From Candidatus Sulfomarinibacteraceae bacterium (GTDB lineage Bacteria; Acidobacteriota; Thermoanaerobaculia; Thermoanaerobaculales; Sulfomarinibacteraceae): 64,000 nucleotides of DNA. Position 1 is the stretch's first letter; each line of letters starts with the position of its first letter. The notes under the pieces were generated by a model, which did no database searches, was not told the DNA's origin, and saw only the letters and a program-made list of their open reading frames with translations. This document shows, in pieces, positions 21,696 through 62,782 of the stretch. The stretch is taken from positions 169,073 through 233,072 of the forward strand of contig CAWCLO010000002.1 of NCBI GenBank assembly GCA_963796455.1. Reading direction: 5' to 3'. Both the position numbers and the translations under genes were made by a program.

Positions 21696-22724
21696 GTGCA
21701 AACACTGCGGCTCGAGGCTTCGCAACTCGGTGCCCTCACCGGTGCACTGATGACCTGGGGACCGGTATGGGCGCCGGTGGAGACCGAGCCGGGAGTCTTT
21801 ACGTTGCAGGTGGTGGACGATGAGGCGACGGCCCGTCCCGACGCCCTGCGTACCGTGATTCCGTTCAAAAAGCTCCTCCTTCCGGCGAGCTTCGCGATGG
21901 TCAGGGGAGGTTTCGGCGACCCGGGCCGTGCCGATGACCTTGCGGGTGAAGCTGGTCGAGGACCGCAGGTGCTCTTCGGAGCGCACGCCTGCGATATCCA
22001 TGCCCTGAAGATCCTCGATCTCCTCTATCTCTCCGACTATGCCGATCCGTACTACGCCGCGAACCGCAACCACCTTTTGGTGGTCGGATTCGGGTGCTGG
22101 CCGGATGACAAGTGCTTTTGCGACTCGCTCGGAACTTCGACCTCGGACGACGGTTTTGATCTTGCTCTGACCCCGCTCGACGGGCGATTCCTGGTGACCG
22201 TGGCGACTTCGAAGGGCGATGACGTGGTGCGGTCCTGCCGGCACCTCTTCGAGCCCGCCACCTCCGACGACATCGGTGACTACCTGATCCGGTTGCGCGA
22301 ACGGAGAGCAGCCTTCAAATTGCGGCTCGACGTGACCGACCTGCCCTACGTGCTGGAGATGAAGAAGGAGGACCCGGTCTGGGACGAACTGGCCCGCAAG
22401 TGCCTGTGTTGCGGCTCGTGCTCGATGGTCTGTCCGACCTGTTCGTGTTTCAATGTCGCCGACCGGATCGACGAGGATGGCACGGCATCTCGCATCCGGT
22501 CGTGGGACTCCTGCCTCTATCGTGACTATGCGGTGGTGGCCGGAGGCCACAACTTCCGCGCCGATCGTGGGGACAGGGTGCGCACACGTTATTACCACAA
22601 GCAGGAGGCCTTCGTACGAGAGTTCGGTATGCCGTCGTGCGTCGGCTGCGGCCGCTGCATCGAGAACTGTCCCACAGGCATCCACGTCGTCGAAGTCTTC
22701 CAGTACGTGCGGGGTGAGCTGTGA
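21696..22724 (+). CDS. Group 3b (sulf)hydrogenase beta subunit, 4Fe-4S dicluster
   Basis: CLCCGSCSMVCPTCSCF and CVGCGRCIENCP. Confidence 0.88.
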   Translation: MQTLRLEASQLGALTGALMTWGPVWAPVETEPGVFTLQVVDDEATARPDALRTVIPFKKLLLPASFAMVRGGFGDPGRADDLAGEAGRGPQVLFGAHACDIHALKILDLLYLSDYADPYYAANRNHLLVVGFGCWPDDKCFCDSLGTSTSDDGFDLALTPLDGRFLVTVATSKGDDVVRSCRHLFEPATSDDIGDYLIRLRERRAAFKLRLDVTDLPYVLEMKKEDPVWDELARKCLCCGSCSMVCPTCSCFNVADRIDEDGTASRIRSWDSCLYRDYAVVAGGHNFRADRGDRVRTRYYHKQEAFVREFGMPSCVGCGRCIENCPTGIHVVEVFQYVRGEL

Positions 22725-23611
22725 CCGTGATTCGAAGCCCGGCGGGCGACGGCGGGCGCGAGCTGGCCACCGGCTCGAACCCCTACCTGCCGGCTCCGGC
22801 GCGCATCCTGCAGGTCACCGAGTTGGTACGGGACACCCACCTCTTCGAGCTGCGATTCGAAGACCCCCCGCTCGCCGCCGCCTTCACCTATCGCCCCGGC
22901 CAGTTCGTCGAGCTGTCGGTCCTCGGGGTGGGCGAAGCGCCGTTCTCGCTGCCGTCGTCACCGACCCGCCGGGGAAGCTTCGAACTCGGCATCCGCAGGG
23001 CGGGCGTGCTCACCAGCTATCTCTTCGACCACCTCGGCGAGGGCGACACGGTCGGCATCCGTGGGCCTCTCGGCAACGGGTTCCCGGTCGACCGATTCGG
23101 CGGTCACGACCTGCTTCTGGTCGCGGGTGGACTGGGGATGGTCCCGCTCCGGGGGCTCCTCCAGTATCTTGTTGACTCGCGCGAGAATTTCGGTCGGGTG
23201 GTTCTGGTCTACGGGAGCCGCAGCCCGGATCGGGTGCTCTTCCGCGACGAACTCGAGCTGTTGGCGCGGCGCGGCGACGCCGAAATCCTGTTGACGGTCG
23301 ACGAAACCGGCGGTTCGGCCTGGGACGGCCGCCGCGGATTCGTGACCGAACTGCTCGACGAGGTGAAGCTGGATTCCGCGCGCTCTTTTGCTGTGGCATG
23401 TGGGCCGCCCGTGTTCTACAAATTCGTCCTCGAAAAACTGGTAGCGGCGGGCTTCGGTAAGGACCGGATCCTTTTGAGCCTGGAGCGACGGATGGAGTGC
23501 GGTGTCGGCAAGTGCGGCCACTGCGCCGTCGGCTACACCTTCACCTGCCTGCACGGACCGGTGTTCAGCTACTGGGACGCCGTCAATCTGCCGGAACTCA
23601 TCTACGAATGA
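22721..23611 (+). CDS. Group 3b hydrogenase gamma subunit, FAD/NAD(P)-binding
   Basis: PGQF, RGPLGNGF, AGGLG, CGPP, ERRMECGVGKCGHC...C.HGPVF. Confidence 0.9.
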   Translation: MTVIRSPAGDGGRELATGSNPYLPAPARILQVTELVRDTHLFELRFEDPPLAAAFTYRPGQFVELSVLGVGEAPFSLPSSPTRRGSFELGIRRAGVLTSYLFDHLGEGDTVGIRGPLGNGFPVDRFGGHDLLLVAGGLGMVPLRGLLQYLVDSRENFGRVVLVYGSRSPDRVLFRDELELLARRGDAEILLTVDETGGSAWDGRRGFVTELLDEVKLDSARSFAVACGPPVFYKFVLEKLVAAGFGKDRILLSLERRMECGVGKCGHCAVGYTFTCLHGPVFSYWDAVNLPELIYE

Positions 23612-24405
23612 ACGACGTGACTTCGAAGCCGAGAGTCGGGATCTTCGGTCTCACCGGTTGCGCCGGGGACCAGCTGCAGATCCTCAACTGTGAGGATCGG
23701 CTTCTCGAGTTGGCGCGAGACCTCGACATTGTCGACTGGGTGATGGCAAAGACCGACAACGACCACGACTGCGCGCTGGACATCGCGTTCGTCGAGGGTG
23801 TGGTGGCGACCGACCGCGATCTGGAGAGTCTCAAAGCGGTCCGCGAGCGCGCCGCCGTGCTGGTTGCGATCGGGACCTGCGCCGTGTGGGGCGGTCTGCC
23901 GGCGATGCGGAACGGCCTCTCCGAAGATGTCCTCGGACGCGAGACGGACGGCGTCGGCAACCCGTCCATCGAGATCGCGGAAGCTCGGCCCGCCGCCGAT
24001 TTCGTGCCCTTCGATTTCCGGCTGCCCGGATGCCCCATCGAACGCGGCGAGTTTCTGGCCCTGGTGCGCGCCGTGCTTGCCGGGACCACGCCCGAGCTTC
24101 CCGCGATTCCGGTGTGCTGGGAGTGCAAGACGTCCGAGCTGCCGTGCCGGGTGATTTTTCACGACGAGGTGTGCTGCGGCGCGATGACGCGCGGCGGCTG
24201 CGGGGCGAGGTGTCCGACTCACGGCATCGCCTGTGCGGGGTGCCGCGGGCCGGTCGAAGAGCCTCACTATGACGCCAACGTCGCCATGTTCTCGGACCGC
24301 GGCCTGTCGTGGCAGGACATCGCCGCGAGGATGCGGGTTTTCTCGGCCCCGGTGTGGATGACGATGGGGCTCGAGCGCGAGGCAAGAAGGGGCGACGATG
24401 AGTAG
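23608..24405 (+). CDS. Group 3b hydrogenase small (delta) subunit
   Basis: GLTGCAGDQLQ, FVEG, IGTCAVWGG, PGCP, VCWEC, CCGAMTRGGCGARCP...CAGCRG. Confidence 0.88.
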   Translation: MNDVTSKPRVGIFGLTGCAGDQLQILNCEDRLLELARDLDIVDWVMAKTDNDHDCALDIAFVEGVVATDRDLESLKAVRERAAVLVAIGTCAVWGGLPAMRNGLSEDVLGRETDGVGNPSIEIAEARPAADFVPFDFRLPGCPIERGEFLALVRAVLAGTTPELPAIPVCWECKTSELPCRVIFHDEVCCGAMTRGGCGARCPTHGIACAGCRGPVEEPHYDANVAMFSDRGLSWQDIAARMRVFSAPVWMTMGLEREARRGDDE

Positions 24406-25699
24406 GACGGTGACGATTCCCCACCTCGGGAGGGTTGAAGGGCACGGCGGAATCCACGTAAGCCTCGCGGGCGACAGCGTGAACGAGGTCAACATGGATA
24501 TCCACGAAGGCAGCCGCTACTACGAGAAGCTGCTCGTGGGCAAAGATTTTCGTGACGTACAGGGCATCATCACCCGGGTCTGCGCCATCTGCTCGGCCGA
24601 TCACACGGTGGTCGCGCTGTCGGCGCTCGAGAAGGCGCTCGGCATTGGCGAAAGCGAACGCACGTCGGTGTTACGCGGATTGCTGTTACACGGGGCCGCC
24701 ATCGAGAGCCACGCCCTTCACGTCTTCGCCCTCGCGCTGCCGGATTTCCTCGGCTTCGACTCGGTCATGGCGATGGCGCAGCAATTTCCCGGCGAGGTGA
24801 CCTTTGCCCTGCGTCTGAAGCAGCTCGGAAATCAGATCCAATCGGTGGTCGGCGGCCGCGCGGTGCACCCGATCAACGCCCTGGTCGGGGGTTTCGGCAA
24901 GCTTCCGCCCCACCGCGCGATCGAGTCGCTGCGCCGCGATCTCGAAGAGGTCGTCGACCCTCTGATGGATGCGGTCGGTCTGCTGGCGTCGATCGATGTT
25001 CCCGAATGGGCTGCCCGGGAAACCGTGTATGTCGCGCTGCGCCCTCCGGGTGACGATTTCGGTTACCGCGGCGACTCGATTCGCACCTCCGGCGGTGTGG
25101 AGTTCCCGGTTGAGGAATACGGCGAGGCGCTGCGCGAGTTTTCGGTCGAGCACTCCCGCGCCCGACACGCGGCATTGGAGTCCGGCGAGACCTACATGGT
25201 CGGGTCCCTCGCCCGGCTCGCGCTGTGGGGTGACCGCCTCCGTGGTCGCGCCGCCCGGGCCTTCGGCGAGCTCATTCCCGGCGGAGCGGTGAACAACGTG
25301 CTGCTCAACACACGCGCCCAGCTGGTGGAAACCGTCCACAGCGTGGAGTCGGCGATCGAGACCTGCGGACTGCTGCTCGGTTTCGATGAAGTCGAAACCG
25401 AGCAACAGGAGGTCGAGGGCCGGGCGGGGAGGGGAGTGGCGGCCATCGAGGCGCCGCGGGGCACCCTGATCCACGAGTACGAGCTCGGCGCCGACGGTCG
25501 GGTGACGGCGGCCAACGTGGTCACGCCGACGGCCCAGAACCTGGCCAACCTGGAACGCGATCTCCGCAGCTCGGGCAACCGGTTGCTCAACGATACCGGC
25601 ACTCCCGAAGTCGAGCTGAAGCGGAGTTTCGAGATGATCGCGCGCGCCTACGACCCGTGCATTTCGTGTTCGGTTCACGTGGCGCGGATTCAGGAATGA
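24398..25699 (+). CDS. [NiFe]-hydrogenase large (alpha) subunit, group 3b
   Basis: RVEGHG, L1 RVCAIC, EAPRG, L2 DPCISCSVH plus short cleavable tail. Confidence 0.93.
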   Translation: MSRTVTIPHLGRVEGHGGIHVSLAGDSVNEVNMDIHEGSRYYEKLLVGKDFRDVQGIITRVCAICSADHTVVALSALEKALGIGESERTSVLRGLLLHGAAIESHALHVFALALPDFLGFDSVMAMAQQFPGEVTFALRLKQLGNQIQSVVGGRAVHPINALVGGFGKLPPHRAIESLRRDLEEVVDPLMDAVGLLASIDVPEWAARETVYVALRPPGDDFGYRGDSIRTSGGVEFPVEEYGEALREFSVEHSRARHAALESGETYMVGSLARLALWGDRLRGRAARAFGELIPGGAVNNVLLNTRAQLVETVHSVESAIETCGLLLGFDEVETEQQEVEGRAGRGVAAIEAPRGTLIHEYELGADGRVTAANVVTPTAQNLANLERDLRSSGNRLLNDTGTPEVELKRSFEMIARAYDPCISCSVHVARIQE

Positions 25700-25703
25700 C
25701 GCC

Positions 25704-26201
25704 ATGAGCGGCCGTCGAAACCATCCGGGGGCGGTGGCGCCCGAACCCGCCCGGCTGTTAATCGTTGGCCTCGGCAATCCCCTGATGGGTGACGATGGAA
25801 TCGGGCACGCGGTTGTCTCGGGCCTGCAGAGCAAGGGGCCGATTCCCGGCGTCCGCGTCGAATTGCTGGCCGGCGATATCCTCGGGCTGGCAGACCTTTG
25901 GGCTGGAGAGCCGGATGTGTGGCTGGTTGATGCCGTTGATGGCGGCCGGAGGGAAGGGCGGATTCGCGTCTTGAGCCACCGGGAGCTCCTCGACCTGCCC
26001 ACGGACGGGCTCTCCGTGCACCAGCTGAGCCTCGGTTCGGGCCTCAACTGGCTGCTGCACGGGAGGCCTGAAATGGCGGCGATTCGATTCCGCCTTTATG
26101 GCATCGAGATCGGTGTGGTTCGTCCCGGGGGGGGGTTGAGCCGCTCCGCCGAAGAGGCCGCCTCGGCACTCGTCGAGACGCTGCAGACGGGCATCAGATG
26201 A
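25704..26201 (+). CDS. Hydrogenase maturation protease
   Basis: GLGNPLMGDDGIG, VDAV, SVH. Confidence 0.9.
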   Translation: MSGRRNHPGAVAPEPARLLIVGLGNPLMGDDGIGHAVVSGLQSKGPIPGVRVELLAGDILGLADLWAGEPDVWLVDAVDGGRREGRIRVLSHRELLDLPTDGLSVHQLSLGSGLNWLLHGRPEMAAIRFRLYGIEIGVVRPGGGLSRSAEEAASALVETLQTGIR

Positions 26202-31338: not shown

Positions 31339-31899
31339 GTGTCCCCGAGTCAATCCAACAACCAAGATCAACCCAGTTTGACGGCCACGCAGGTCATGGC
31401 GGCGTTGCGGAGGATCATTCGGGCGATCGACCTGCACTCCCGGACATTGGTTCGGCGATACGGTCTGACGGGGCCGCAGTTGGTGATTCTGAAGGAGTTG
31501 GTTGAGACCTCGCCGCAATCAGTGAGTTCGCTGGCAGCAGCTGTCAACCTCAGTCAGGCCACCGTTACCGGGATTCTCGATCGTCTCGAGCGCAAGACCA
31601 TGATCACAAGACGGCGTGATTCAAAGGATAAGCGTAAAGTGATGGTCTCACCAACCTCAGCGGCTGAGGATGCGCTGGCAGGTGCGCCACCACTTCTCCA
31701 GGAGCACTTCACGGATGCGTTTGCCGGTCTGGCGGATTGGGAGCAGACTCAGATTCTCTCCTCTCTGCAGCGAATCGTCGTCCTGATGGAGGCCGGGAGC
31801 GTCGAGGCCGGGCCCATTCTCACGACTGGGCCTCTCGACGCGACGCCGGAGGAGACCGAGGCATTTCTGGAACCGACGCAGGCGGAGAACGGGGCCTAG
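31339..31899 (+). CDS. MarR family regulator, EctR-like, copy 1
   Basis: ALRRIIRAIDLHSR.L....GLTGPQL, SQATVTGILDRLE, DKRKV, PPLLQEHF, EQTQILSSLQRIV.LM. Confidence 0.88.
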   Translation: MSPSQSNNQDQPSLTATQVMAALRRIIRAIDLHSRTLVRRYGLTGPQLVILKELVETSPQSVSSLAAAVNLSQATVTGILDRLERKTMITRRRDSKDKRKVMVSPTSAAEDALAGAPPLLQEHFTDAFAGLADWEQTQILSSLQRIVVLMEAGSVEAGPILTTGPLDATPEETEAFLEPTQAENGA

Positions 31900-31954
31900 A
31901 AGTTCCCTCGAGTTGGCTGGTTGGTCCCCAGGTCTTGTCCTCAAATACCTCCCA

Positions 31955-31978
31955 TGATAATGTTTAGTGTGCGATGCT
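31955..31978 (+). promoter_or_regulatory. Extended -10 (TGaTAATGT) overlapped by a putative EctR-type operator, upstream of ablA copy 1
   Basis: TGATAATGTTTAGTGTGCGATGCT; TTGTCC 17 bp upstream of TAATGT; block conserved in copy 2. Confidence 0.5.
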
Positions 31979-32069
31979 TTATTGGCACTCGTTAGAGATT
32001 TTCCCTCACCCCCCACCCCGCTTTGCCGACTGTGCCTAGCGCTGCTGGGCGGTCGAAAGGAACAACCCG

Positions 32070-33419
32070 ATGTCAAATCCAAATACAGATATTGCCACCA
32101 ATGTGGCCGATGAACAGCCCTGGTACAAAGAACGCTCGATCTGGCGCGACGTGCCGATGGCTCAGTGGAATGACTGGCATTGGCAGATGCGTCACCGTGT
32201 TTCCACGGCCGAAGAGCTGGCACGCGTCATCCCCATGACGCCGGGTGAGCAGCGCACGATCGAGCGTGCGCTCGACCGATTCCGCTTTGCTGTGCCTCCG
32301 TACTACGCCTCCCTGATTGACCCGGACGACCCTGAGTGCCCGATTCGTCTGCAGTCCGTTCCCGGTGAAGGCGAGCTGACCATCAGGGATTTTGAAATCG
32401 TCGATCCTCTCAACGAGGAAGGAGACTCGGTGGTGCCGGGAATGACCCACCGATACCCGGATCGTGTGTTGTGGGTGATCATGCACGAATGCGGCATGCT
32501 GTGCCGCCATTGCACCAGAAAGCGCAAGGTCGGGGACCGTCCGGCACCGATCAGCGAAGACCAGTTGGATGCCGGGATCGCTTATCTGAAAGCCAACCCC
32601 GAGATCCGTGACGTGCTGCTCTCAGGCGGTGACCCGCTCCTCCTGTCCGATGACCGCATCGAGCATGTGTTGAAACGCCTCCGCGATGAGGTGCCGTCAG
32701 TGAAGATCATCCGCTTCGGCTCGCGCTTGCCGGTCACCATGCCGCAGCGGATCACACCTGAGCTGGTCGAGATGCTGAGTCGCTACCATCCGATCTTCGT
32801 CAACACACATTTCAACGTACCCAAAGAGTTCACTCCAGAGTCCGAGAATGCGTTGCGAATGATGGCCGATGTCGGGATTCCACTCGGCAATCAGAGCGTG
32901 CTGCTGCGCGGAGTCAACGACTGTTGGGCGTTGATGCGCAAGCTGATGCATGAGCTGACAGCCAACCGGGTGCGCCCCTATTACCTTTACCAGTGCGATC
33001 TGGCCGAGGGCCTCGATCATTTCCGTACGACCGTGGCCAAGGGCATCGAAATCATGGAGCACCTGCGTGGTCACATATCGGGTCTCGCTGTGCCGACGTT
33101 CGTGGTTGACGCACCCGGAGGAGGCGGCAAGATTCCGGTGCATCCCAACTATGTGGTGTCGCAGCACGAAAACAAGGTTGTCCTGCGCAATTTCGAGGGT
33201 CGGATCGTTGCCTACGAGGAGCCCAGGGAGTACACCGGCATGTGCAACGAGGGGCGTCCGTGCTCCTATTGCAGGGACATCTACCGAGCAGGCGAAGAAT
33301 CCGTCGGTGTTGCCGGTCTTTTCGACGACGATCCCGACAATATTGTGCTCGTTCCGACCGAATCTGCGGCCGAAGAAGAGGAGGCGGAGAAGGGCGCGTC
33401 TGCCCGGAGGTCCGCGTGA
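32070..33419 (+). CDS. ablA: Lysine 2,3-aminomutase (KamA/AblA), copy 1
   Basis: [50 protein letters not shown]-terminal Cys cluster; coupled to acetyltransferase. Confidence 0.93.
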   Translation: MSNPNTDIATNVADEQPWYKERSIWRDVPMAQWNDWHWQMRHRVSTAEELARVIPMTPGEQRTIERALDRFRFAVPPYYASLIDPDDPECPIRLQSVPGEGELTIRDFEIVDPLNEEGDSVVPGMTHRYPDRVLWVIMHECGMLCRHCTRKRKVGDRPAPISEDQLDAGIAYLKANPEIRDVLLSGGDPLLLSDDRIEHVLKRLRDEVPSVKIIRFGSRLPVTMPQRITPELVEMLSRYHPIFVNTHFNVPKEFTPESENALRMMADVGIPLGNQSVLLRGVNDCWALMRKLMHELTANRVRPYYLYQCDLAEGLDHFRTTVAKGIEIMEHLRGHISGLAVPTFVVDAPGGGGKIPVHPNYVVSQHENKVVLRNFEGRIVAYEEPREYTGMCNEGRPCSYCRDIYRAGEESVGVAGLFDDDPDNIVLVPTESAAEEEEAEKGASARRSA

Positions 33420-34306
33420 GCCATGCAGAGACGGTCTCAGCAGCAGAGGCCAACACCCTGGCGAGGATTGAAGGGGAGGGCTTCGCAGCAAAGGTCTTCC
33501 TCAGTCCGCTCAATCAGAGAATCCAGGTATTGAGCTACGAGGCGCACAATGTGCGGCCCCTGGTTTCGGATTTCGAAGACATCGCGCGTCAGGCCGGCTT
33601 CGGCAAGATTTTTCTCAAAGCGCCAGTGAAGGACAAAGCGCGTTTCCAGGAGGCCGGGATGTGCGCAGAGGCGACGATCGACGGCTACTTCAACGGCCGG
33701 CCGGCCGTTGTCATGTCGCTTTTTCTCAACGAGAAACGTCGTCAGCGGCCGCATGCGGAGGATCAGGATGCGATCATGGCGAAGATCCGCGAACGTCCGG
33801 TGAACTCCTCGGTTCCGGCGTTGCCCGAAGGCTATGAGATGTTCCCGAGTGGGCTGCAAGATGCCCAGGAGATTGCCCTGCTCTACGCTGAGGTCTTTGC
33901 CAGCTATCCGTTTCCGATCACCGATCCCGATTACATCACCTCGACGATGAAATCAAACGTGCTGTACCGCATTGTTCGTGACTCGAAGGGGACCCTCGTC
34001 GGTGCCGCGTCGGCAGAAACCAGCCCCGAACTCCACAACGCAGAAATGACCGACTTCGCGACGCTGCCCAGCCAGCGTGGTCTCGGCCTTGCTCAGCACA
34101 TTCTGGCGGCACTCGAGAAGGATATGGCTGAGCGCGACATTTCGAATCTTTACACGATCGCTCGGGCTCGGTCGGCCGGCATGAACCGCGTCTTCTACAA
34201 CCGTGACTATGAACTGACCGGAACTCTCGTCAATAACTGCCACATCGCCGGACAGTTCGAGGACATGCACATCTGGTGCAAGTCCCTGAGGACCGGCGAC
34301 AACTGA
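33416..34306 (+). CDS. ablB: Beta-lysine N-epsilon-acetyltransferase (GNAT), copy 1
   Basis: [67 protein letters not shown]. Confidence 0.9.
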   Translation: MSHAETVSAAEANTLARIEGEGFAAKVFLSPLNQRIQVLSYEAHNVRPLVSDFEDIARQAGFGKIFLKAPVKDKARFQEAGMCAEATIDGYFNGRPAVVMSLFLNEKRRQRPHAEDQDAIMAKIRERPVNSSVPALPEGYEMFPSGLQDAQEIALLYAEVFASYPFPITDPDYITSTMKSNVLYRIVRDSKGTLVGAASAETSPELHNAEMTDFATLPSQRGLGLAQHILAALEKDMAERDISNLYTIARARSAGMNRVFYNRDYELTGTLVNNCHIAGQFEDMHIWCKSLRTGDN

Positions 34307-34810: not shown

Positions 34811-35023
34811 GTCCGATCGGCGCATCCAGATCGAGACGATCCTGGGTGACCATTCGCCTCGGACGGTTCTTTGACGGTGCGGCGGCGCTCATTCGGATCC
34901 TCCCGATGGAGCCGCGCCGGTCCCAGGGCGCAAGTCTCCTTTTTCGTCGGCCCCACGGTACCGGCGAAAGAATGGTTTGTTCGCATCGTTTGGCCGGAGC
35001 CGCCGACGCGGTATGCTCGAACG

Positions 35024-37003
35024 ATGTACGAGCAGATCTCCCACGCCATCCTCAACGACATTCTCGACGACCTCGGACCGGATCTGAACCGAGAGGATCT
35101 CCGCCACTTCTTCGTCCGCCTCGGCGCCAACTTCTACGCGATCCACTCGCTCTTCAGCCACCTGTACGGCAGCCGCGACGATGTGGTCGATCAGCTCCGG
35201 ACTCTGGTCGAAAAGCTCGCGCGGGCCTACGTCGGACGTCCGGACGAACTTCGACGGATCGACATGGCTCGTGAGGAGGAGCACAACTGGTTCCTGAGCC
35301 AGAACATCGTCGCCATGGCGCTCTACTGCGAGGGTTTTGCCGGCGACCTGGAGGGGCTGGAGTCGCGGCTCGAGTACCTCGCCGAGCTCGGGGTCAACAT
35401 GGTCCACGTCCTGCCCGATCCTTGCCGGTCCGGAAGGCGCCAGGGACGGCGGCTACGCGGTCAGCGACTTCCGTCGCATCGATCCCAGGGTCGGTACCGC
35501 CAAGGACCTCACCCGGCTTGCCCGGACGATGCGCGAGAGGGGCATGCTGCTCGCCCTCGACGTCGTGGTCAACCACACCTCGGACGAGCACGAGTGGGCC
35601 CGCCGGGCGCGAGCCGGCGAGGAGGAGTTCGAGGACTTCTACTTCCTCTTCGACGACCGCGAGGTGCCGGACGCCTTCGAGCGGACCATGCCCGAGATCT
35701 TCCCCGAGAACGCGCCGGGCAACTTCACCTTCGACGACGACGTCGGGCAAGTGGGCGATGACGGTCTTCAACACCTACCAGTGGGATCTGAACTACACCA
35801 ACCCACGGGTCCTCATCGAGATGGTCGACGTCATTCTCCACTGGGCCAATCACGGCGCCGATGTGATCCGCCTCGATGCGGTGGCCTTTTTGTGGAAACA
35901 GCTCGGAACCACCTGTCAAAACCTGCGGGAGGCGCACCTCATCCTTCAGTTGATGAAGGACTGCTGTCAGGTGGTGGCGCCGGGGGTGCTGTTCATCGCC
36001 GAGGCCATCGTCGCACCGGTGGAGATCGCTCGCTACTTCGGCGAGGACGCGGTCATCGCCAAGGAGTGCGAAATCGCCTACAACGCCACCCTGATGGCGC
36101 TGCTCTGGGACGGCGTCGCGACGGGCAACGCGAAGCTTCTGAAGCGGGGCGTGCTCAGCCTGCCGAACAAGCTCGATCGCGCCACCTGGCTCAACTACGT
36201 TCGTTGCCACGATGACATCGGTCTCGGATTCGAAGACGCGGACATTGCCGCCGCCGGCTACGATCCGGCTGCCCACCGGCGTTTTCTCTTCGACTGGTTC
36301 ACGGGCCGATTCGAAGGGTCTGTCTCCCGCGGCGAACTTTTTGCGGTCAACACGCGAACCGGGGACGCCCGAATCTCGGGATCGCTGGCCTCCCTCGCCG
36401 GTCTCGAGGCGGCGCTCGAGAGCGGTGATCCCGAGGCGGTGGATCTCGCCGATCGACCGCATCGTCATGCTGCACGCGATGATCATGTCGTATGGCGGCA
36501 TTCCGATGCTGTACTACGGCGACGAGGTCGCGACCCTCAACAACCGGGACTACCTCGACGACCCGGAGCGCGCCGACGATTCGCGTTGGCTGCACCGGCC
36601 GGTCATCGATTGGCGGCGCATGGAACGCCGGTTCGATCGCGGCACCATCGAGCAGCGGGTCTTCTCGGCCCTGAGGAGGATGATCGAGATCCGCAAGACG
36701 ATTCCGGCCTTCGCGGACTTCAACAACCGGGAGTTGATCGAAATCGACGATCCCTCCCTCTTCGCCTTCCTGCGCACCCCGCCGGACCTGAGCGGCGAGC
36801 CGGTGCTCGTGGTGGCGAACTTCGGGCTGGCGCCGACGACCCTCGCTCCCCATGAGATCGGTGGCCGCGGGATCTTCCGCTACGGAACCGTGGTCGACCT
36901 GCACTCGGGCGACGTCATCGAGCTCGAACGGGAGCTGGTCGTCGTGCCGCGATGCGGCTTCCGCTGGCTGACGGATGGTCGGCCGAGAGCCGGGCGAGGC
37001 TAG
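35024..37003 (+). CDS. Amylosucrase / GH13 sucrose-active enzyme (frameshifts near 35410, 35750, 36450)
   Basis: [73 protein letters not shown] spread over four reading segments. Confidence 0.85.
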
Positions 37004-37149
37004 GCCTAGGAGCATGGATCTTGGAAGCGTGACGGAGCGTCATTCGAGTTCGCCCTGATCTACGGCCGCGTATTCGACAGCAACCTGATCGTCGTGCCGC
37101 GATGCGGCTTCCGCTGGCTGACGGACGGTCGGCCGAGAGCCGGGCGAGG
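36939..37149 (+). repeat. 61-bp direct repeat, two copies 150 bp apart (3' end of the amylosucrase gene)
   Basis: 36939-36999 and 37089-37149 differ at one base. Confidence 0.9.
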
Positions 37150-37249
37150 TTCGGCCTAACCCGAGGAATTCGCCAGGTTTCGCCGCGAGGTCGGAAACCG
37201 ACTGCTCGATGGTATCGTCGCGGACCTTGCGCACCCTCGTTGGTGATCG

Positions 37250-39773
37250 CTATGGGCAACGTGACGGGCCCCAGCTATAGCCACACCGCAGGCCGGGCAT
37301 GGTGACCACCGGGTGCCCCTGGTCCTCACGCACCTCATCGGGCCAGCTGAAATCGGCGTCCATGGTGCGGAAGTAGTCGAGGGTGTAGGGCCACAGGGTG
37401 ATCTCTGCTGTGCCTCTGCCGGGGCCGCGACGAATGCGGCAGCCGGGCCCGAAGTCGACCTCGCCCAGCTCTGTCGAGATGATCAGGCGCGGCAGCTCGC
37501 GGCCGCTGCCGTTGCGCCGCAGCTCGGTCGCAATGCCGATGATCGTGTCGAGGTCCACAGGGCGACCGCTGTTCCAGTGCCGTTGGGTCTGCGCGCCGGC
37601 GACATAGAGGTGGTGGAATTCGAAGCCGAAGCGACGACACTTGGACGACAGTGCGCGCATGGCAGCCGCGCTGTCGTTAACGTTGTGCAGCAGGCAGCTG
37701 TTGAGATAGACCGTGACGCCGTGCTGGTGGAAAGCCTCGACCACGCGGCGGTGGGAGTCGTCGAGTTGATCGGCGCTCAACACCAAGGTCTCGAGCTCGA
37801 AACGCACGGGATCGGCCACCTCGAGGCTCTGCAGAGCCGCGTAACGCTCGACGACCGAGGCGTCGTAGAGCAGCGGCTCGTCGTGAAAGACGCGGCTGCG
37901 CATACGGAACGACCGCACGCCGGTGTCGGCGCGCAGGGCGTACACGATGCGTTCGATCTCGTCCTGGGAGTCGGGGAGGTCGGTCTGAGTGCGCAACACG
38001 ACGTCGGTGATCTCCGGCCGATTCGCCACATAGTCGACGATCTGCCGGAGCTCGCGATCATCGCAATCCGCGCGAAGCTCGACACGGGTCAGGTGCACCC
38101 GACAGAGTTTGTCGATGCCGCAGGGGACGACCTCCGGTCCGATGTCGGGCAGATAACTGTAGAGCCTTGCGATCTGTTCCTCGTCGAAGGGCAGGTCGTC
38201 CTCGTCGTCCACCTCGTCGACACCCGGAAGCTCGACCCTGGGAGAGACGAAGAGCGCGTCGTCTCCGATATCGGCCATGAAGCGCGCCTCGAGCATCCCG
38301 TCCTCATTCTCGCGTACGCCCTCGATCTCCGCTGCGGCCGCCACGAATTGGGAGAAGTACTCCGCGGTGTAGGGTGTCCGGATCCACACAAACGCCGGAT
38401 CATCGACGTCACGCTCCACCGCCCAGCCGCTGGTCAGCCAGTCGATCTTGCCGATCTTGGTGGCCGTGGTCAGGTGGGGGATCGCCCGGTCCGAGAGCTG
38501 GGCCCGCAGGAAGTTGCCGGCCCGCAACGCCGTCGCGATCGGGCTCCAAAAGCGCCGGTTGCCTTTGATGGCACTGCAGGGGAAGAAGATGTAGTGCATC
38601 TCCGCACCGCGCAGTCGCAGCTCGCGGTAGAGGCGGACCAGGACCTCGCCGTCGTCGTTGCAACCGGCGAGGAATGGAGTCTGGATGTAGACTGGAATGC
38701 CGTTGCGCGCCAGCTCGGCAATCACCTCGAGCGAGGCGACGGATGCCTCGTCGGGATGAATGAAGTGCCCGGCCACCTCGAGATGTTTGCCGACAATGGC
38801 CAGATCATCGCGCGCCTTGATCAAGAAGCGAACCCAGAAATCGCCGCGTCGACGCAGCATCTGCGGATGGTAAGAGATGGTGCGCGCCGCCAGACGTACG
38901 GTCTCGACGTGGGGGATGTCGCGCGAGCCCGTAGATGGACTGTTCGACGGTCTTGCGGTTCATCAGCGGCTCGCCGCCCGTGAGCACGACCTCCCGGATG
39001 CGGTCGTTACCCGAGATGTAATCCAGCGCCGCGTCCACATCTGCCACGGTCGGCGGCGCCTGTTCGCGGGTTTCCTTGTGTTTGCGGAAGCAGAAGCGGC
39101 AGTACACCGGGCAGCTCATGTGCAGCACCAGGATCACCCGGTTTTCGTACATTTGCTCGACCACGCCCTGATGGAACTGACCGATCCATGTGTGGACCTG
39201 GCCCTCCGGTGAAAGCTCGTCGGTGAACGGCAGGTACTGGTACCCGATGTTTTCGGACAGCCTGATCTGGCGCAGGGTGTGGTGCGAGAGCCGCACCGGA
39301 TACTCGTGCAGGACGCGACGGAGGCTGCCCCGTTCGCCCTCGGGCACCGTGAAGTTGCACAGCGCCTCGTAGTGCTCGAGTTCGCCGATATTCACGAAAC
39401 CGCTCCCCGGCAGCATCTCCTCCAGGAAGGTCAGCAGCAGCTCCTGGGGCAGGTCGATGCCTCCCAGGTTCACCCGAGCCACCGCCTGCGGCGATGCATG
39501 GTTCAACGCGTCGAGAATCTCGTGGATGAACGCTTCGACCCAGTCCTCGTAGCCGCATGCCGCGATCAGCCGCTGCAGGCGCTCGTCGCCGTCGCCTTCA
39601 CCCAGCACGGCGGCGAGCTTCTGCCCGACCACGGCGGGTTCGCCGTACCGATCCAGGAATTCAACCAGCCGATCCTCGAGGAGGCCGATATCGATCTCGC
39701 CCTGCGACAGGGGTGTGCCCTGCTCGCCCGTCCAGATGCCCGTTTCGGAACGCACGCTCTCACTCACTTTCAA
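37250..39773 (-). CDS. Large tandem-domain KamA-family radical SAM protein (~840 aa; one frameshift near 38920)
   Basis: Domain 1: MYENRV, CPVYCRFCFRK, VLTGGEP, HFIHPDE, QTPFLAGCND, GKIDW; domain 2: EITDVVL, NSCLLHNVNDS, LRRNGSGRELP without CxxxCxxC. Confidence 0.82.
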
Positions 39774-42044: not shown

Positions 42045-44200
42045 TCATCTTAGGGTCATGTCATGGGTTGGTTGATGGCCGTTGTCGACATCGAGGAAAC
42101 CGAAGTGGCGGATCCCTTCGAGAATGCCGCGCGCATGCTCTGCCGTCGCGAAGTGGATTCCCCTGCGCCCGCGGAGCCCACGGAGCTCACGACTGAAGTT
42201 GCCGACCACGACAGCTTGCTCGGCACTCTTGAGCATGAGGGCGTCGTTCCCCGAGTCGCCGGCCACCAGGACCTGGCCTCGGTTGAACCCCCAGCGAAGC
42301 GCCAGGTGTCTCACCGCCTGCCCTTTCGATGCCTTGGCGGGGAGAAGATCGAGGTACTTCGAGTGCGAGGCGATCGCCGTGGCCCGAAGACCTCGGTCTC
42401 GTAGTCGGCGGCGGATTTCGGAGGAACCAGGCCACCGATCTGATTCGGTGAAGTAGCTGACCTTGAGCGGGCTCTGGTTTCGCTTCGGCTGCAGCTTGAG
42501 ACCGGGGACATCCTCGAGCGCTTCACGAATCCCGTCCGGATCCCACTCGCGATCGATGTGTCGGCGCCAACTGAGGTCCTCGACGGGGTATCCGCGCCAG
42601 TAGTGAATCTCGCTGCCCACCGACGTGATCAGAGCATCCGGGATCGGAATCGACCACCGGGAAAGGACCCCTAGCGCGCCCTTCAGGTCTCGGCCGGTTG
42701 CGACGCCGAACGCAACGCGTTCGCGATGGTCCCCGAGCCAGGAAGCGAACTCCTTCGCTGCCTCGAGATCGCCCAGGAGGGTGTTGTCGATATCGCAGAC
42801 GAGGAGACGGTCGGCGAGCACCATTCGTGCCGGAGGCGCCGCCGGTGTCAGCGGTCGCCGACGTCGGATGCGCTTCACGTCGCGGAGATACCGTTTCGCG
42901 TGCCCCGACCACGAGAAATGAGTGTCCGCACCACGAACCCCGGCCCGCGATCGTCGACTCCATTGGGTGCCGTCCTGAAGGACCTCGAGAAGACCGTCCG
43001 CGATGGAAGATGCATCCATGGGATCGACCGACACGCCGTTCTTGCATTTCTCGATGATCTCGGTCGGACCACCGTCGTGGGTTGCCACAATCGGCAGGCC
43101 GCTCGCGGCCGCCTCGATCAGCGTCAGACCGAAGGGCCCGGTGACGGCCGGGTTGACGAAGACTCCGCGCCGGCGGGTGGCGAGTCGGTAAACCTCGGCA
43201 ACGTCGTCTGCCGTGTGGGTTTTGGGATACGCGACGCGACCGTATAGATCGAATGTGTCGATGAGGTGCAGCATCTGCTGCACGATCATCCGTTGCGCCT
43301 CGGAAGGTCGTCGAGATCGTCTCGATCGCCGATGAGCAGCACCAGATTCGCCCGTTCGCGCAGCTCCTCGTGCTCGCCGTATGCCCGGATCAGTGTTTCC
43401 AGGTTTTTACGCTCGTCCGGCCGTTGCACCGCGAGGATCATCGGCTTCTTTGGTTCTCGGAGAAACCGGTCGATCTCGCCCGCAAACTGAATCTCCTCTC
43501 CTCGTCGAGGAGGCCGGAACCGGTCGAGATTGACCCCGGGTGCGTTGACAACCATCCGGTTGGTGGCGTTGACATCGTACATCCCGTATTGTTCGGCCAC
43601 CTCCTGGAGGTGCTGGCGATCACAGGTCGGCGCCCTCGAGGACACGCTCCTCGGCGTTGATGCGCCGGGTGATGTTGTAGCGCGATTCGATGGATTCAGC
43701 GGCTCAATCCCTTCTCGAGCAAACGCTGACGCTTGACGCGTCCAAGAGAGTGAGTGGTGTAAACGATTGGCGAGCCCAGCAGCTTGCCCAGCCGCAATCC
43801 CGACCACGCCGGCGTCCGGGTAGTGACCGTGGACGATGTCGGGCACCCGCCCAAGTCTCTCTGAAGTGCAGCAGCGCGTTGTCGACGAACTGCGGCAGGT
43901 AGGGCCAGAGCGACTCTTTGTGCAGATAGCGGTGCGGGCCGAACGGGACGCGGACGATCCACGCGCGTTCGGTCAAAGGCTCGATATGGCTCGGCGTAAT
44001 CCGGCGCGACGTTGGTTGACAAGATCTGGCGGGTCATGAGCTCGACCCGGGCGACCTCGGGACGGCGCGACAGAGCCCGGGCGAGCTCCAGGACATAGAG
44101 CACCTGGCCGCCGGTGTCAGCATCGCGGCCCAGCTCGGGGTTGTCGCCCCGGATCAGCCCGTGGGCGCTGACGAGGCAGATGAAGAGACCGTCGTGGAGT
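42045..44200 (-). CDS. sps: Sucrose-phosphate synthase with C-terminal HAD (SPP) domain, copy A (several frameshifts; start approximate)
   Basis: [69 protein letters not shown]. Confidence 0.85.
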
Positions 44201-54754: not shown

Positions 54755-56109
54755 ATGTCCATATCCGACACCTGCCCTCGACCGCGATGCGGCGGCGAGG
54801 AACCCTGGTACAAACGGCGGACGATCTGGCGCGACGTGCCCATGAGCCAGTGGCGCGACTGGCACTGGCAGATGCGGAACCGGATCACCACCGCCGAGGA
54901 GCTCGCCCGCGTCATGCCGATGACGCCGCGGGAGCAGCGCACCATCGAGCGGGCCCTCGACCGGTTTCGATTCGCGGTGCCGCCGTACTACGCGTCCCTC
55001 ATCGACCCGGATGACCCCGAGTGCCCGATCCGCCTGCAGGCGGTCCCCGGCGAGGGAGAGCTCGCCGTCGGCGACTTCGACATCGAGGACCCGCTCAACG
55101 AGGACGGCGACGCGGTGGCGCCCGGGATGACCCACCGCTACCCGGATCGCGTGCTCTGGGTCATCATGCACGAGTGCGCCATGCTGTGCCGCCACTGCAC
55201 GCGCAAGCGAAAGGTCGGCGAGCGTCCCGACGCCGATCAGCGAGGATCAGCTGGACGCGGGGATCGCGTACCTGAAGTCGAACCCGGAGGTGCGGGACGT
55301 CCTGCTCTCCGGCGGGGACCCGTTCCTGCTGTCGGACGATCGCCTCGAGCACGTGCTCCAGACGGGTCCGCGACGAGGTGCCGTCGGTCGAGATCATCCG
55401 ATTCGGCACCCGCGTTCCGGTCACCATGCCGCAGCGGATCACGCCCGAGCTGGTCGAGATGCTGCGCCGCTATCACCCGGTCTTCGTCAACACCCACTTC
55501 AACGTCCCCAAGGAGTTCACCCCCGAGTCCGAGGCCGCGCTCCGGCTGATGGCCGACGCCGGCATCCCGCTCGGCAACCAGAGCGTGCTGCTGCGCGGGG
55601 TGAACGACTGTTGGGCGCTGATGCGCAAGCTGATGCACAAGCTCACCGCCAACCGCGTGCGGCCGTACTACATCTACCAGTGCGACCTCGCCGAGGGTCT
55701 CGAGCACTTCCGCACGACCGATCTCCAAGGGGATCGAGATCATGGAGCACCTCCGCGGCCACATCTCGGGGCTCGCGGTGCCGACCTTCGTCGTCGACGC
55801 CCCCGGCGGCGGCGGCAAGATCCCGGTCCACCCCAATTACATCGTGTCGCAGCACGAGCACAAGGTCGGTGCTGCGCAACTTCGAGGGCCGGATCGTCGC
55901 CTATGAAGAGCCCAAGGAGCTACATCGGCATGTGCAACGAGGGGCACCCGTGCTCGTACTGCCGAGAGATTCTCCGCAACGGCGAGGAGACCGTCGGCGT
56001 GGCCGGACTCTTTGACGACGACCCCGAAAACATCGCGCTGGTCCCGACGGAAGCGGATGTGGACGAGGACGGTGTCCAAGAGGCCGAGGCCGATCGGAGT
56101 TTGGCGTGA
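54755..56109 (+). CDS. ablA: Lysine 2,3-aminomutase, copy 2 (frameshifted)
   Basis: [34 protein letters not shown] across frames. Confidence 0.88.
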
Positions 56110-56996
56110 CCGGGGTAGCCACAGAAGCCGCGAGCACGTTCAACACGTTCGACCCGGATCAGCGGCGATGGGTTCCGAGCCGAGATCTACTTCGCCCCGC
56201 TCAACCAGCGCATCCAGGTGCTTGAGTACGAGGCCGACGACACCGAGAAGATGGTGGCGAGCTTGGCCGACGGCGCTCGGGAAGCCGGATTCGGTAAGGT
56301 CTTTCTCAAGGCGCCGGTTCCACCAGAAGGACAGCCTCGAGGCCGCCGGGATGACCGCCGAGGCAACGATCAACGGCTACTTCGCCGGACAGCCCGCAGT
56401 GGTGATGTCGGTGTTTCTCAACGAGGACCGGCGGAGCCGGCCCTTTGCCGACGAGGAGGCGGCGATTCTGAAGACGATTCGATCACGGCAGGCCGATCCC
56501 TCCGTGAAGGAGTTGCCGGCTAAGTACGAGATGGCAATTGCCGGGCCGGCAGACAGCCGTCGAACTCGCCCTGCTCTACGGCCGCGTCTTCGACAGCTAC
56601 CCGTTTCCGATCACCGATGCCGAGTATCTCGTCTCGACCATGGAGATCGAACATCGTCTACCGCATCGTCCGCGACGCGACTGGGCGAGATCGTGGCGGC
56701 AGCGTCGGCGGAGACCGATCCCGGAGCAACGAAACGCGGAGATGACCGACTTCGCCACCCTTCCGAGCCAGCGCGGTCTCGGGCTGGCGAAGCACATCCT
56801 CGCCGCCCTCGAGGACGATATGGACGAGCGAGGGATTCACAACCTCTACACCATAGCCCGTGCCCGGTCCGCGGGCATGAACCGGGTGTTCTACAACCGC
56901 GGATACGACTGGACGGGGACACTGGTCAACAACTGCCACATCGCCGGTCAGTTCGAGGATATGCACATCTGGTGCAAGACGCTGAACCGACACTAG
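56106..56996 (+). CDS. ablB: Beta-lysine N-acetyltransferase, copy 2 (frameshifted)
   Basis: [57 protein letters not shown]. Confidence 0.86.
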
Positions 56997-57207: not shown

Positions 57208-58167
57208 ATGAGACAGCCCAACACCGGCGGCGGAGCAGCGTCCGGGCCCGCGCCTGCCGCGTCCGGCGGACGCCCCGTCGTCGTCGGCGAGGTGCTCTTT
57301 GATGTCTTTCCGGACGGCACGCGGGTCTTGGGCGGCGCGCCGCTCAACGTCGCGTGGCATCTGCACGCCCTCGGGCTCGAACCATTGCTGCTCTCCAGGA
57401 TCGGCGACGACGACCTCGGCGGCGCGGTCCTCGACGCTGTGGAGTCGTGGGGCATGGACTGTTCTGGGATACAGATCGATCGTGACGCACCCACGGGTAG
57501 GGTCGCCGTCGAGTTCGACAACGGTTCACCGACCTTTGATATCGTCGCCGACCAGGCCTACGACAGGTTCGACCCTGACGCCGCCCGTGACGCCCTCGTC
57601 GGTTGCCGCCCGGCGCTGCTCTACCATGGCTCGCTGATCGCCCGTGACAAAGCCGCCGATCGCGCGCTGCGGAGTCTTCGAGGGAAGACCGGGGCGCCGA
57701 TCTTTGTCGATGTCAACCTCCGCGACCCGTGGTGGTCGGTGAAGACGGTGACATCGCTGACCCGCGGCGCCCGTTGGGTCAAGCTCAACGACGACGAGCT
57801 CGGCCGGTTGTGCGGTCAGGATTCTGTCGCCGATGCCGTGGGCTCCGAGCTTGACGCGGCGGAGCTCGCCCGCCGGCACGGGATCGATGAGCTGGTGGTC
57901 ACCTGTGGCGACCGGGGGGCTTATGTCTGGGTCGGAGACAAGGCCGTCGCGGGTCGGCCACCCGGCGAGATCGAGGTGATCGACACCGTCGGCGCGGGCG
58001 ACGCCTTCAGCGCGGTGTGGATCACCGGTCTGCTCAGCGGCTGGGACTCGGAGACCACCCTGGTTCGGGCGTTGGAGTTCGCAGCCGTCATCTGCGGTAT
58101 CCGAGGGGCGACGACCACCGACCGCCGAATCTATGATCACTGTCGAAATGCCTGGAGACTGCCATGA
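57208..58167 (+). CDS. PfkB-family carbohydrate kinase (fructokinase)
   Basis: GEVLFD, GGAPLNVA, DVNLR, VKLNDDE, DTVGAGDAF; overlaps sps start. Confidence 0.9.
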   Translation: MRQPNTGGGAASGPAPAASGGRPVVVGEVLFDVFPDGTRVLGGAPLNVAWHLHALGLEPLLLSRIGDDDLGGAVLDAVESWGMDCSGIQIDRDAPTGRVAVEFDNGSPTFDIVADQAYDRFDPDAARDALVGCRPALLYHGSLIARDKAADRALRSLRGKTGAPIFVDVNLRDPWWSVKTVTSLTRGARWVKLNDDELGRLCGQDSVADAVGSELDAAELARRHGIDELVVTCGDRGAYVWVGDKAVAGRPPGEIEVIDTVGAGDAFSAVWITGLLSGWDSETTLVRALEFAAVICGIRGATTTDRRIYDHCRNAWRLP

Positions 58168-60321
58168 GCAACGAGCGAGGCCTCTACATCGCGTTGATCA
58201 GTGTCCACGGGCTGATCCGTGGGACCAATCCCGAGCTCGGGCGAGACGCCGACACCGGAGGCCAGGTCCAGTATGTCCTCGACCTCGCCCGCGCGCTTGC
58301 CGAGCGCCCGGATATCGACCGAGTCGAACTCATGACGCGACAGATCTTGTCGACCAACGTCGACTGGCACTACGGCGAACCGGTCGAACAGATCGCCGAG
58401 AAGGCGTCGATCATCCGACTCCCTTGCGGACCGCATCGCTATCTCCACAAGGAATCACTGTGGCCGTATCTGCCGCAGTTCACCGACGAGGTGCTGCAGC
58501 ACTTCCGCAGGATCCAAAGGGTTCCCGACGTCATCCACAGCCACTACGCCGACGCCGGCGCCATCGCGGTGCGGTTGAGCGGATTGCTCGACACAACCCT
58601 CGTCCACACCGGGCACTCGCTGGGCAAGAGCAAGCAGCAGCGGCTGCTCGACAAAGGGACGGCGCCGGAGACCATCGAGAAGCGCTACCGCATGAGCCGC
58701 CGCATCGCCGCCGAGGAGCAGGTCCTCGCGGCGGCGGATCTGGTCATCGCGAGCACGGATCAGGAGGTGGAGGAGCAGTGGGGTCAGTACGAGGGGAGCT
58801 CTCCGAGCCGGATGCTGGTCATTCCTCCCGGGGTCGATCTCGATCGATTCAGCCCGCCCCGACGGGGCGACCAACTGCCCGAAATCGCCGGCGAGGTCGA
58901 CCGGTTTCTGAGCGAGCCGAAGAAACCGTTGATTCTCGCGCTGCAGCGGCCCGACGAGCGCAAGAACCTGGCGACGCTGATCCGCGCCTACGCCGGGCAC
59001 GACGAACTCCGTCGCAGAGCCAACCTTGCGCTGGTCATCGGGAAGAGGGACGACATCACCGAGTTGCCCAGGGCGCAGCGGAAGATCCTCACCGAGATGC
59101 TGCTCCTCATCGATCGATACGATCTCCACGGATCCGTGGCCTACCCAAAAAGCCATCGTCCGGAGGACGTTCCGGACCTGTATCGCCTCGCCGCCATGCG
59201 CCACGGTGTTTTCGTCAATCCGGCCTTGACCGAGCCGTTCGGGCTCACCCTCATCGAGGCCGCCGCCAGCGGGCTGCCGGTGGTCGCCACCGACGACGGC
59301 GGCCCGACGGCGATCGTCGGCTCGTGCCGAAATGGACTGCTCGTCGATGCCCTCGACGCCGACCGAGATGGCCGACGCGCTCCACGAGGTCGTGGCCGAT
59401 CCCAAGGCCTGGCGACGGCGGTCGAAGGCCGGGATCCGGGGCGCATACGGCTATTCCTGGAGCGGTCACGTCGAGCGATATCTCAAGGCGATCCGCCGCC
59501 GTCTCCGCACGAAGGTGCGCCGGCGCCGGTCCGAGGTGCCGCGGCACCCGCTCGTCCTGGCCGACCGGCTGCTCGTCTGCGACATCGACAACACCCTGAC
59601 CGGCGACCACGCGGCGCTCGATCGGTTCCGCGTCTGGCTCGAGGCCCACCGTGGCGAGGTCGCCTTCGGCATCGCCACCGGGAGGGTGCTGAGCAATACC
59701 ATTCGGGCGCTCAAGGAGTGGGAGATCCCGCGGCCGGATGTTCTGATCACCGCGGTCGGCAGCGAGGTCTATTACGGTCGAAACCGATTCGTCGACGATG
59801 TCGGGTGGCGGAGGCTCATCGATCGCAAGTGGGAGCCCGATCGCCTCCGCAAGCTCCTGTCGGCGGTGCCCGGTCTCAGGCTCCAGCCGAAGGCCGACCA
59901 GCGGCGATTCAAGCTGAGCTACTTCCTCGATCCGAAAAAGGCGCCGTCCATCGCCGAGCTCCGGCGGCGCATCAGATCGGCCGGTCTCGAGGCCCAGCTC
60001 ATCTACTCGCACGAGGCCTACCTGGATCTCCTTCCGGCGCGCGCCTCAAAGGGCGGGGCGCTCAAATACCTGGCTCACCGCTGGGGTCTGCCCCTCGAAC
60101 ACCTGCTGGTGGCCGGCGACTCGGGCAACGACGCCGAGATGCTGACCTCCGGCGCCTTCGGGATCGTGGTCGGCAACTACAGTCCCGAGCTGAGGAACCT
60201 CCGCGGGCGCGAGGGCGTGTACTTCGCCGAGGCCGAGCACGCCGGTGGGATCCTCGAGGGAATCGACCACTTCGGGTTCGACGACGGGGTCGGTCACGAC
60301 GGCGACGAGACCGACGACTGA
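58164..60321 (+). CDS. sps: Sucrose-phosphate synthase with SPP (HAD) domain, copy B (one frameshift near 59365)
   Basis: [67 protein letters not shown]. Confidence 0.92.
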
Positions 60322-60331
60322 GGCGGGTGCC

Positions 60332-62727: not shown

Positions 62728-62782
62728 GGCCGCCCATTGTACGACGCCGAAAATCGGAATCAATCGCGTTGGTTGATTCCGA

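Follow-up and report, generated by a model that had tools for sequence, protein, structure and literature searches.

A tandem KamA-family protein with one predicted active site, common in sediment sulfate reducers and possibly linked to N-epsilon-acetyl-beta-lysine

The window analysed in this work, a stretch of 64,000 nucleotides from a Candidatus Sulfomarinibacteraceae bacterium, encodes a protein in which a complete KamA-type barrel is almost certainly fused to a second, cofactor-less barrel. Judged from its sequence, this protein is with good confidence predicted to be an active PLP/radical aminomutase, and free L-lysine is probably not its main substrate. It is tentatively proposed to be a 2,3-aminomutase of N-epsilon-acetyl-lysine and N-epsilon-acetyl-beta-lysine, that is, of an N-acylated diamino acid, a prediction drawn from the chemistry of lysine 2,3-aminomutase (LAM) and from gene context. 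The family to which it belongs is widespread and apparently undescribed. The gene appears in the assembly as two minus-strand ORFs, at 38805-39773 (322 aa) and 37250-38860 (536 aa), whose frames cross near position 38920, and the following features were assigned:

31339-34306, plus strand: marR, ablA (above the TIGR03820 cut-off) and ablB (above the TIGR03827 cut-off), 3 kb from the aminomutase gene
37250-39767, minus strand: whole gene, 838 aa when read like its intact homologues, with a probable GTG start at 39767
39405-39767, minus strand: N-terminal helical region, residues 1-121; nothing in Pfam matches, and of 102 scored positions 6 are near-invariant
39084-39113, minus strand: CPVYCRFCFR, with Cys219, Cys223 and Cys226 (LAM Cys125, Cys129 and Cys132) and Arg228 (LAM Arg134), placed by alignment
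38919, no strand: extra single base that breaks the frame, a probable assembly error
38258-39404, minus strand: domain 1, residues 122-503, a complete radical-SAM/PLP barrel of KamA type, with conservation of at least 98% at 120 of 382 positions
38573-38575, minus strand: Ser398, at the position of LAM Asp293; Ser in 200 of 200 sequences, His in four of the most distant members shown
38462-38464, minus strand: Ala435, at the position of LAM Asp330; Ala in 193, Ser in 6 and Gly in 1 of 200 sequences
38447-38449, minus strand: Lys440, which corresponds to the PLP lysine Lys337 and sits in a loop shorter by two residues than in LAM; 200 of 200 sequences
38147-38257, minus strand: acidic linker, residues 504-540; unconserved, low model confidence
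37283-38146, minus strand: domain 2, residues 541-828, a barrel of LAM fold that lacks the cysteine triad, the GGD motif and the PLP lysine; its conserved residues cluster where the model brings it into contact with domain 1

The original prediction had joined the two ORFs across one indel into a single fused gene of about 840 aa with a unique N-terminus of about 130 aa. An intact homologue of 838 aa (P0001), the best match, is 96% identical to each half of the window gene and confirms the fusion and the overall length; the N-terminal region proved shorter than stated, at about 120 aa. Intact tandem relatives of 820-850 aa are common: a protein search with the second ORF yielded 573 proteins among 8,000 scored candidates, and most of the 120 proteins listed have 810-890 aa. 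The indel itself was traced to base 38919, which is missing from all four of the closest loci and from contigs of the sequencing runs X3 and X4; those of X1 and X19 do not span the site. Comparison of these sequences indicates that the frame break is most likely an assembly error. It is highly improbable that the family is functional but the window copy a recent pseudogene with a real frameshift, or that the halves are separate genes. The break does sit in the sole assembly available, and a search of sequencing runs turned up no reads of the source organism, the best run sharing 0.23 of its words. However, the codon differences of the window gene are synonymous to non-synonymous in ratios of 59:27 (against L029) and 61:23 (against L006), and five or more further genes of the window also have broken frames (amylosucrase-like, one sucrose-phosphate synthase, sucrose synthase, the second ablA and the second ablB). 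Separate genes are ruled out: the break falls within domain 1 rather than between the domains, and shorter close matches align as pieces of the long form. The same gene is split once each, at other places, at G456:C2:2126064-2128530 and G591:C89:28325-30783. RNA run X19 contributed a single contig of 424 bases, which covers 38309-38731 with 14 differences and does not show transcription, and a scan at the gene detected neither a promoter nor a terminator at its end. A 63-base direct repeat (36939-37001 and 37089-37151, 61 of 63 positions identical), possibly an insertion scar, lies between the end of the amylosucrase-like gene and the stop of the aminomutase gene.

The two domains differ sharply in what they retain of LAM. 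All motifs previously read by eye were found, namely, CPVYCRFC with the following Arg, YIFFPCS, PHLTTA and GKI, as well as EITDVVL, NSCLLHNVNDS, LRRNGSGRELP and GEVD. Residues were counted in 200 full-length sequences (at least 800 aa) from the 120 listed proteins and 103 loci, and LAM numbering was carried over through the window AblA aligned to the Clostridium subterminale structure 2A5H. The equivalents of LAM Cys125, Cys129, Cys132, Arg134, Arg116, Arg198, His230, Gln258 and Lys337 are invariant in all 200. In LAM, Asp293 and Asp330 presumably grip the epsilon-amine of lysine, and Arg134 is taken to bind the carboxylate. A profile alignment pairs Asp293 with Ser398, Asp330 with Ala435 and Lys337 with Lys440, and not one of the 200 sequences has an acid at either aspartate position, as had been claimed for domain 1, whereas both AblA copies in the window indeed keep YQCD and FVVD. 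The surroundings of PLP are also altered, with an invariant Glu204 at LAM Thr110 and Met206 at LAM Arg112. The tandem family has gained two invariant acids of its own, Glu330 and Glu389, which map to the modelled domain interface at the PLP end of the barrel; because of this location they are unlikely to anchor a side chain, and their candidacy as substitute amine anchors is disfavoured.

None of the NCBIfam cut-offs is reached by the tandem family, as scored with the intact homologue L041. TIGR00238 (KamA family) is a near miss at 172.2 bits against 199.2, and the scores fall far below the cut-offs for TIGR03820 (AblA/KamA; 167.1 against 525.4), TIGR04468 (arginine 2,3-aminomutase; 170.1 against 600), TIGR04368 (glutamate 2,3-aminomutase; 145.7 against 650), TIGR03822 (AblA_like_2; 145 against 396.25) and TIGR03821 (EpmB; 138.2 against 369.3). 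LAM_C (PF12544) matches neither half of the window gene nor L041, whereas it does match the window AblA. The LAM fold, CxxxCxxC and the PLP lysine of domain 1 nevertheless place the protein among KamA-like radical-SAM/PLP enzymes in the broad sense. With LAM and AblA it shares this fold, CxxxCxxC, Arg134 (Arg228, 200 of 200), Arg116, Arg198, His230, Gln258, the PLP lysine and a link to ablB; it differs from them in the Ser/Ala pair that replaces both aspartates, a shorter lysine loop, the lack of LAM_C, an extra N-terminus of 120 aa and a fused cofactor-less barrel, and its identity to LAM is 22-23%. Glutamate 2,3-aminomutase, in which the 293 and 330 positions are changed to basic or amide residues, is a KamA-family precedent for an altered side-chain pocket, but the window protein has no basic residue there and is tandem. 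The C-terminal half has its best NCBIfam score with arginine 2,3-aminomutase, yet no antibiotic-cluster context was seen for the window family. AblA_like_2-type proteins also have CPVYCRFCFR, but they keep both aspartates and have a single domain. Neither efp nor epmA is among the recurring neighbours annotated around the tandem gene. The family would work like LAM, yet it fails the tested LAM/AblA features and scores too low for EpmB and for the glutamate and arginine aminomutases.

Domains 1 and 2 are homologous (probability 99.9, E 2.5e-32); the latter lacks the cysteine triad and, as predicted from GEVD, carries Glu or Asp at the position of the PLP lysine. The full-length model (pLDDT 84.8, pTM 0.90) superposes on 2A5H with a Z score of 31.0 and an rmsd of 2.3 A over 337 residues, the next entry having a Z of 14.7; domain 2 alone (pLDDT 93.2) reaches a Z of 19.0 and an rmsd of 3.1 A over 231 residues, with 11.4 for the next. 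When domains 1 and 2 were folded as two chains, the complex scored 0.95 and the best of three controls 0.00, the runs agreeing in at least 94% of contacts with a partner pLDDT of at least 91. Of 157 solved complexes, 116 attain the mark used for this score, as do 2 of 215 mismatched pairs, and resemblance to the solved LAM oligomer may explain the pass. In the model the PLP ends of both barrels face each other, with Arg756 of domain 2 contacting Tyr360 and His391, and Arg750 contacting Lys440 and Asp442; 14 of the 25 invariant domain-2 residues belong to the interface, which comprises 56 of the 288 residues (p 2e-5). The partner subunit of LAM acts as a lid on the active site. Since the modelled interface lies at the PLP end and invariant residues cluster in it, domain 2 looks selected as a lid that would replace this subunit. 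It would shut the PLP end of domain 1, and one chain would therefore carry one active site. The pseudo-dimer architecture originally proposed is supported by the LAM fold of both halves and by this modelled arrangement.

A quick tree of 69 rows places domain 1 (support 98) and domain 2 (support 100) each on one side of a branch and separates both together from all single-domain rows at 93, the branches of domain 2 being much longer; this fits one old duplication. A profile search of 1.84 billion representatives returned divergent full-length members and single-domain relatives (P0348, P0350, P0351, P0354 and others), one of them from a Micrarchaeota MAG, nearly all of which lack both acids. 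By this quick tree, the tandem family forms a distinct clade with acid-less single-domain sisters. Since the loss of both acids is common to many of the latter, it does not point to one substrate. Eight single-domain KamA-like proteins (P0348, P0350, P0351, P0354, P0368, P0371, P0373 and P0377), mostly without both aspartates, have ERxY, FHCxP and short GK-loop motifs and score below every NCBIfam cut-off. No close relative of P0348 was found in plasmids or viral contigs, which yielded no gene context for it, and matches in the ESM Atlas carry automatic names only. Seven genomes (G483, G523, G532, G550, G569, G574 and G583) have two copies of the tandem gene, the second mostly clearly lower-scoring; this suggests subtypes, and the neighbours of second copies differ in the regions read (L192, L204 and L205). 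In agreement with the original prediction, literature and sequence searches revealed no characterised homologue. The literature searched, which holds few subscription papers, contains no description of a tandem KamA or of the importer operon described below, and the portions seen of PMC6522883 (which treats KamA function), PMC12776343, PMC12316311, PMC11887813 (whose main text, in the part seen, mentions no lysine, radical SAM or racemase) and bioRxiv 10.64898/2026.07.07.736966 do not deal with the tandem family.

Two opposite patterns of co-occurrence emerge, as the gene is found together with ablAB in the host family and with ablB mostly without ablA in sulfate reducers. It was present in 15 of 77 genomes of the host family, and 14 of these 15 have both ablA and ablB above cut-off, which rules out a simple replacement of AblA everywhere for this family; ablB occurs in 20 of the 62 genomes without the tandem gene. 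The order ablA-ablB-tandem gene, in one orientation, is seen in G478, G122 and G026. The gene was detected in 2 of 301 genomes of a phylum sample around G151 and in 4 of 151 in the host class, and close loci are labelled Thermoanaerobaculia. The position within an osmolyte region, noted at the outset, holds for the window, but the closest relatives, L006 and L029, do not share it. In the window, a second ablA-ablB copy (54824-56984) is frame-broken in the assembly and keeps YIYQCD. Sucrose-type solute genes, several of them frame-broken, lie at 34871-37003, 42045-44103 and 57208-62970 (amylosucrase-like, two SPS/SPP fusions, sucrose synthase and a PfkB kinase), and a four-subunit sulfhydrogenase-type NiFe hydrogenase operon with a maturation protease is found at 21696-26201.

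The survey of homologue neighbourhoods that had been suggested was carried out, and the commonest context is an operon of importer, amidohydrolase and racemase genes. In 80 metagenome loci, which were the best out of 306 confirmed and often short and related, the neighbours were amidohydrolase_3 (34), ABC ATPase (32), M23-like (30), IclR (27), AblB (21), PotD-like (19), proline-racemase family (19), class I aminotransferase (12) and other KamA (3) genes. In 32 genome regions, chosen from 57 carriers related to G349 with long contigs favoured, the counts were amidohydrolase 20, PotD 18, M23-like 13, racemase 12, AblB 3 and KamA 0, often in one same-strand run. The core operon, controlled by IclR or sigma-54 and usually lacking ablB, comprises racemase, amidohydrolase, importer, tandem gene and M23-like hydrolase. 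None of nine host-family regions contains it; in the genome from which the window comes, nothing matched PotD or the M23-like protein, and the amidohydrolase (34%) and racemase (33%) have only distant homologues, located elsewhere. A second amidohydrolase type, only 29% identical, follows the gene in L004, L007, L030, L032 and L034. The racemase-family neighbour keeps both cysteines in all full-length copies, which rules out a dehydratase, and has a distinct RRYPxLCGH motif. The M23-like protein keeps HxxxD, has HxH in 32 of 34 cases and matches the middle of PRK06148; as a stand-alone ORF (L076:2576-3256 and 33 similar ones) it lies directly downstream of the tandem gene in many loci.

Of the 121 relatives of G349, by inference sulfate reducers, 57 contain the tandem gene, while 18 have ablB and 5 have ablA, both scored above cut-off. 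Fifteen of the 18 ablB genomes carry the tandem gene and two carry ablA above cut-off. A broader check of six genomes with ablB and the tandem gene revealed a KamA with both aspartates in G547 and other KamA types in two; since the former scored under the threshold, the ablA count is an undercount. In the remaining three, G550, G619 and G608, the tandem family is the only KamA-family match. The genomes are related and many are incomplete, so that p values overstate the evidence. Lysine 5,6-aminomutase (PF09043) was found in 3 of the 121 genomes, each with its own KamA, which rules out a replacement of KamA in lysine fermentation. Where it stands away from any ablA, ablB was also observed as the last gene of polar amino-acid ABC operons (L231 and L239), alongside M23-like and amidohydrolase genes (L241) and close to a racemase-family gene (L236).

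An N-acylated diamino acid fits the absence of an anchor for a charged side chain, the recurring amide hydrolase and the recurring beta-lysine acetyltransferase, and among such compounds acetyl-lysine and acetyl-beta-lysine are the pair with a known natural source. The reaction would follow LAM-like chemistry, with a substrate-PLP aldimine, hydrogen abstraction by the 5'-deoxyadenosyl radical and a 1,2-amino shift, and an uncharged acetamide side chain would have no need for the Asp anchors. The route proposed for sulfate reducers is import of the solute, followed by its conversion into the alpha isomer and deacetylation; where ablB occurs without ablA, the reaction could proceed in the opposite direction, with AblB acetylating lysine before the amino shift. 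The accessible text of PMC12549914 reports that the AblB homologue O34895 (YodP) of Bacillus supported acetyl-lysine production in an E. coli reporter, and that of PMC12776343 describes the AblA/AblB route to N-epsilon-acetyl-beta-lysine. The proposed route has the solute and the acetyltransferase family in common with the latter, but here the amino shift would take place on the acetylated compound and would serve mainly uptake and breakdown. For the neutral substrate originally envisaged, a diamino acid neutralised by N-acylation is the best interpretation; the idea of an undescribed beta-amino-acid solute is weakened, as the operon reads as uptake and conversion and the ablB link leads to a known compound. 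A new solute is unnecessary to explain the data. Against acetyl-lysine stand the 42 of 57 G349-group carriers in which ablB was not found and the lack of the importer operon in the host. The gene of the proline-racemase family with its Cys/Cys pair, seen in 19 of 80 loci and 12 of 32 regions, is unneeded for L-to-L salvage and unexplained.

Somewhat less likely is a catabolic aminomutase for another imported compound or hydrolysis product, such as N-acetyl-diaminobutyrate from ectoine, N-acetyl-ornithine, 2-aminoadipate, an N-substituted lysine or a small neutral amino acid, for which the ablB link would be secondary; the new-solute idea is included here. The core operon, with ablB in only 3 of the 32 regions, is consistent with such a role, as are class III aminotransferase or CoA-transferase genes near a few loci (L188, L217 and L222), but this reading leaves unexplained the nesting in ablAB genomes (14 of 15) and the separate ablB adjacencies in three lineages, and a binding protein scored only 80 bits on the ectoine EhuB model, whose cut-off is 190.9. 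A 2,3-aminomutase of lysine (or ornithine or D-lysine) with a rewired pocket, which would pass a beta-amino acid to AblB while the racemase supplies the right enantiomer, is doubtful to a slightly greater degree. It would account for the 21 of 80 loci in which ablB adjoins the tandem gene, mostly without ablA, for the three genomes in which the latter is the sole KamA-family match beside ablB, and for the racemase found in the operon. The importer is either PotD-like or, in 4 of 80 loci, of the polar amino-acid class, whose best PDB match, 3vv5, is presumably a lysine/arginine/ornithine binder; polyamine- and lysine-type binding proteins usually take cations, and importers of these classes suit a free amine better than acetyl-lysine. 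However, no acid occupies 293 or 330 in any of the 200 sequences, Glu330 and Glu389 sit at the modelled interface, canonical ablA coexists in 14 of 15 host-family carriers, and the gene does not travel with lysine 5,6-aminomutase. Another PLP/adenosyl-radical chemistry without an amino shift (radical deamination, elimination or epimerisation) is very unlikely: the identity of 22-23% to LAM and the Glu204 and Met206 substitutions would allow it, but the Arg134, His230, Gln258 and Lys337 equivalents are invariant and all characterised KamA-family enzymes are, to our knowledge, 2,3-aminomutases.

We know of few substrates for radical-SAM/PLP aminomutases, namely, lysine, glutamate and arginine, and the routine annotation of the tandem family as lysine 2,3-aminomutase is probably wrong. 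Sediment sulfate reducers commonly carry this family, as seen in 57 of the 121 genomes of one sample. If the acetyl-lysine isomers are its substrates, the enzyme would provide a testable turnover route for an osmolyte of methanogens and bacteria, for whose breakdown no paper was found in the literature searched (few subscription papers included), and would account for genomes with ablB but without ablA. The fused live/dead design may serve as a one-active-site scaffold for studies of LAM chemistry and for the making of beta-amino acids. Another KamA subfamily of sulfate reducers (L258:7265-8389, L259:7685-8797, L260:7752-8828, L262:7969-9042 and L263:4354-5427) has YCE(P/A) and ATNIGK at the 293 and 330 positions. 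In L260, L262 and L263 the gene that follows looks glutamine-synthetase-type by eye, and this subfamily is a candidate for beta-glutamate or beta-glutamine metabolism.
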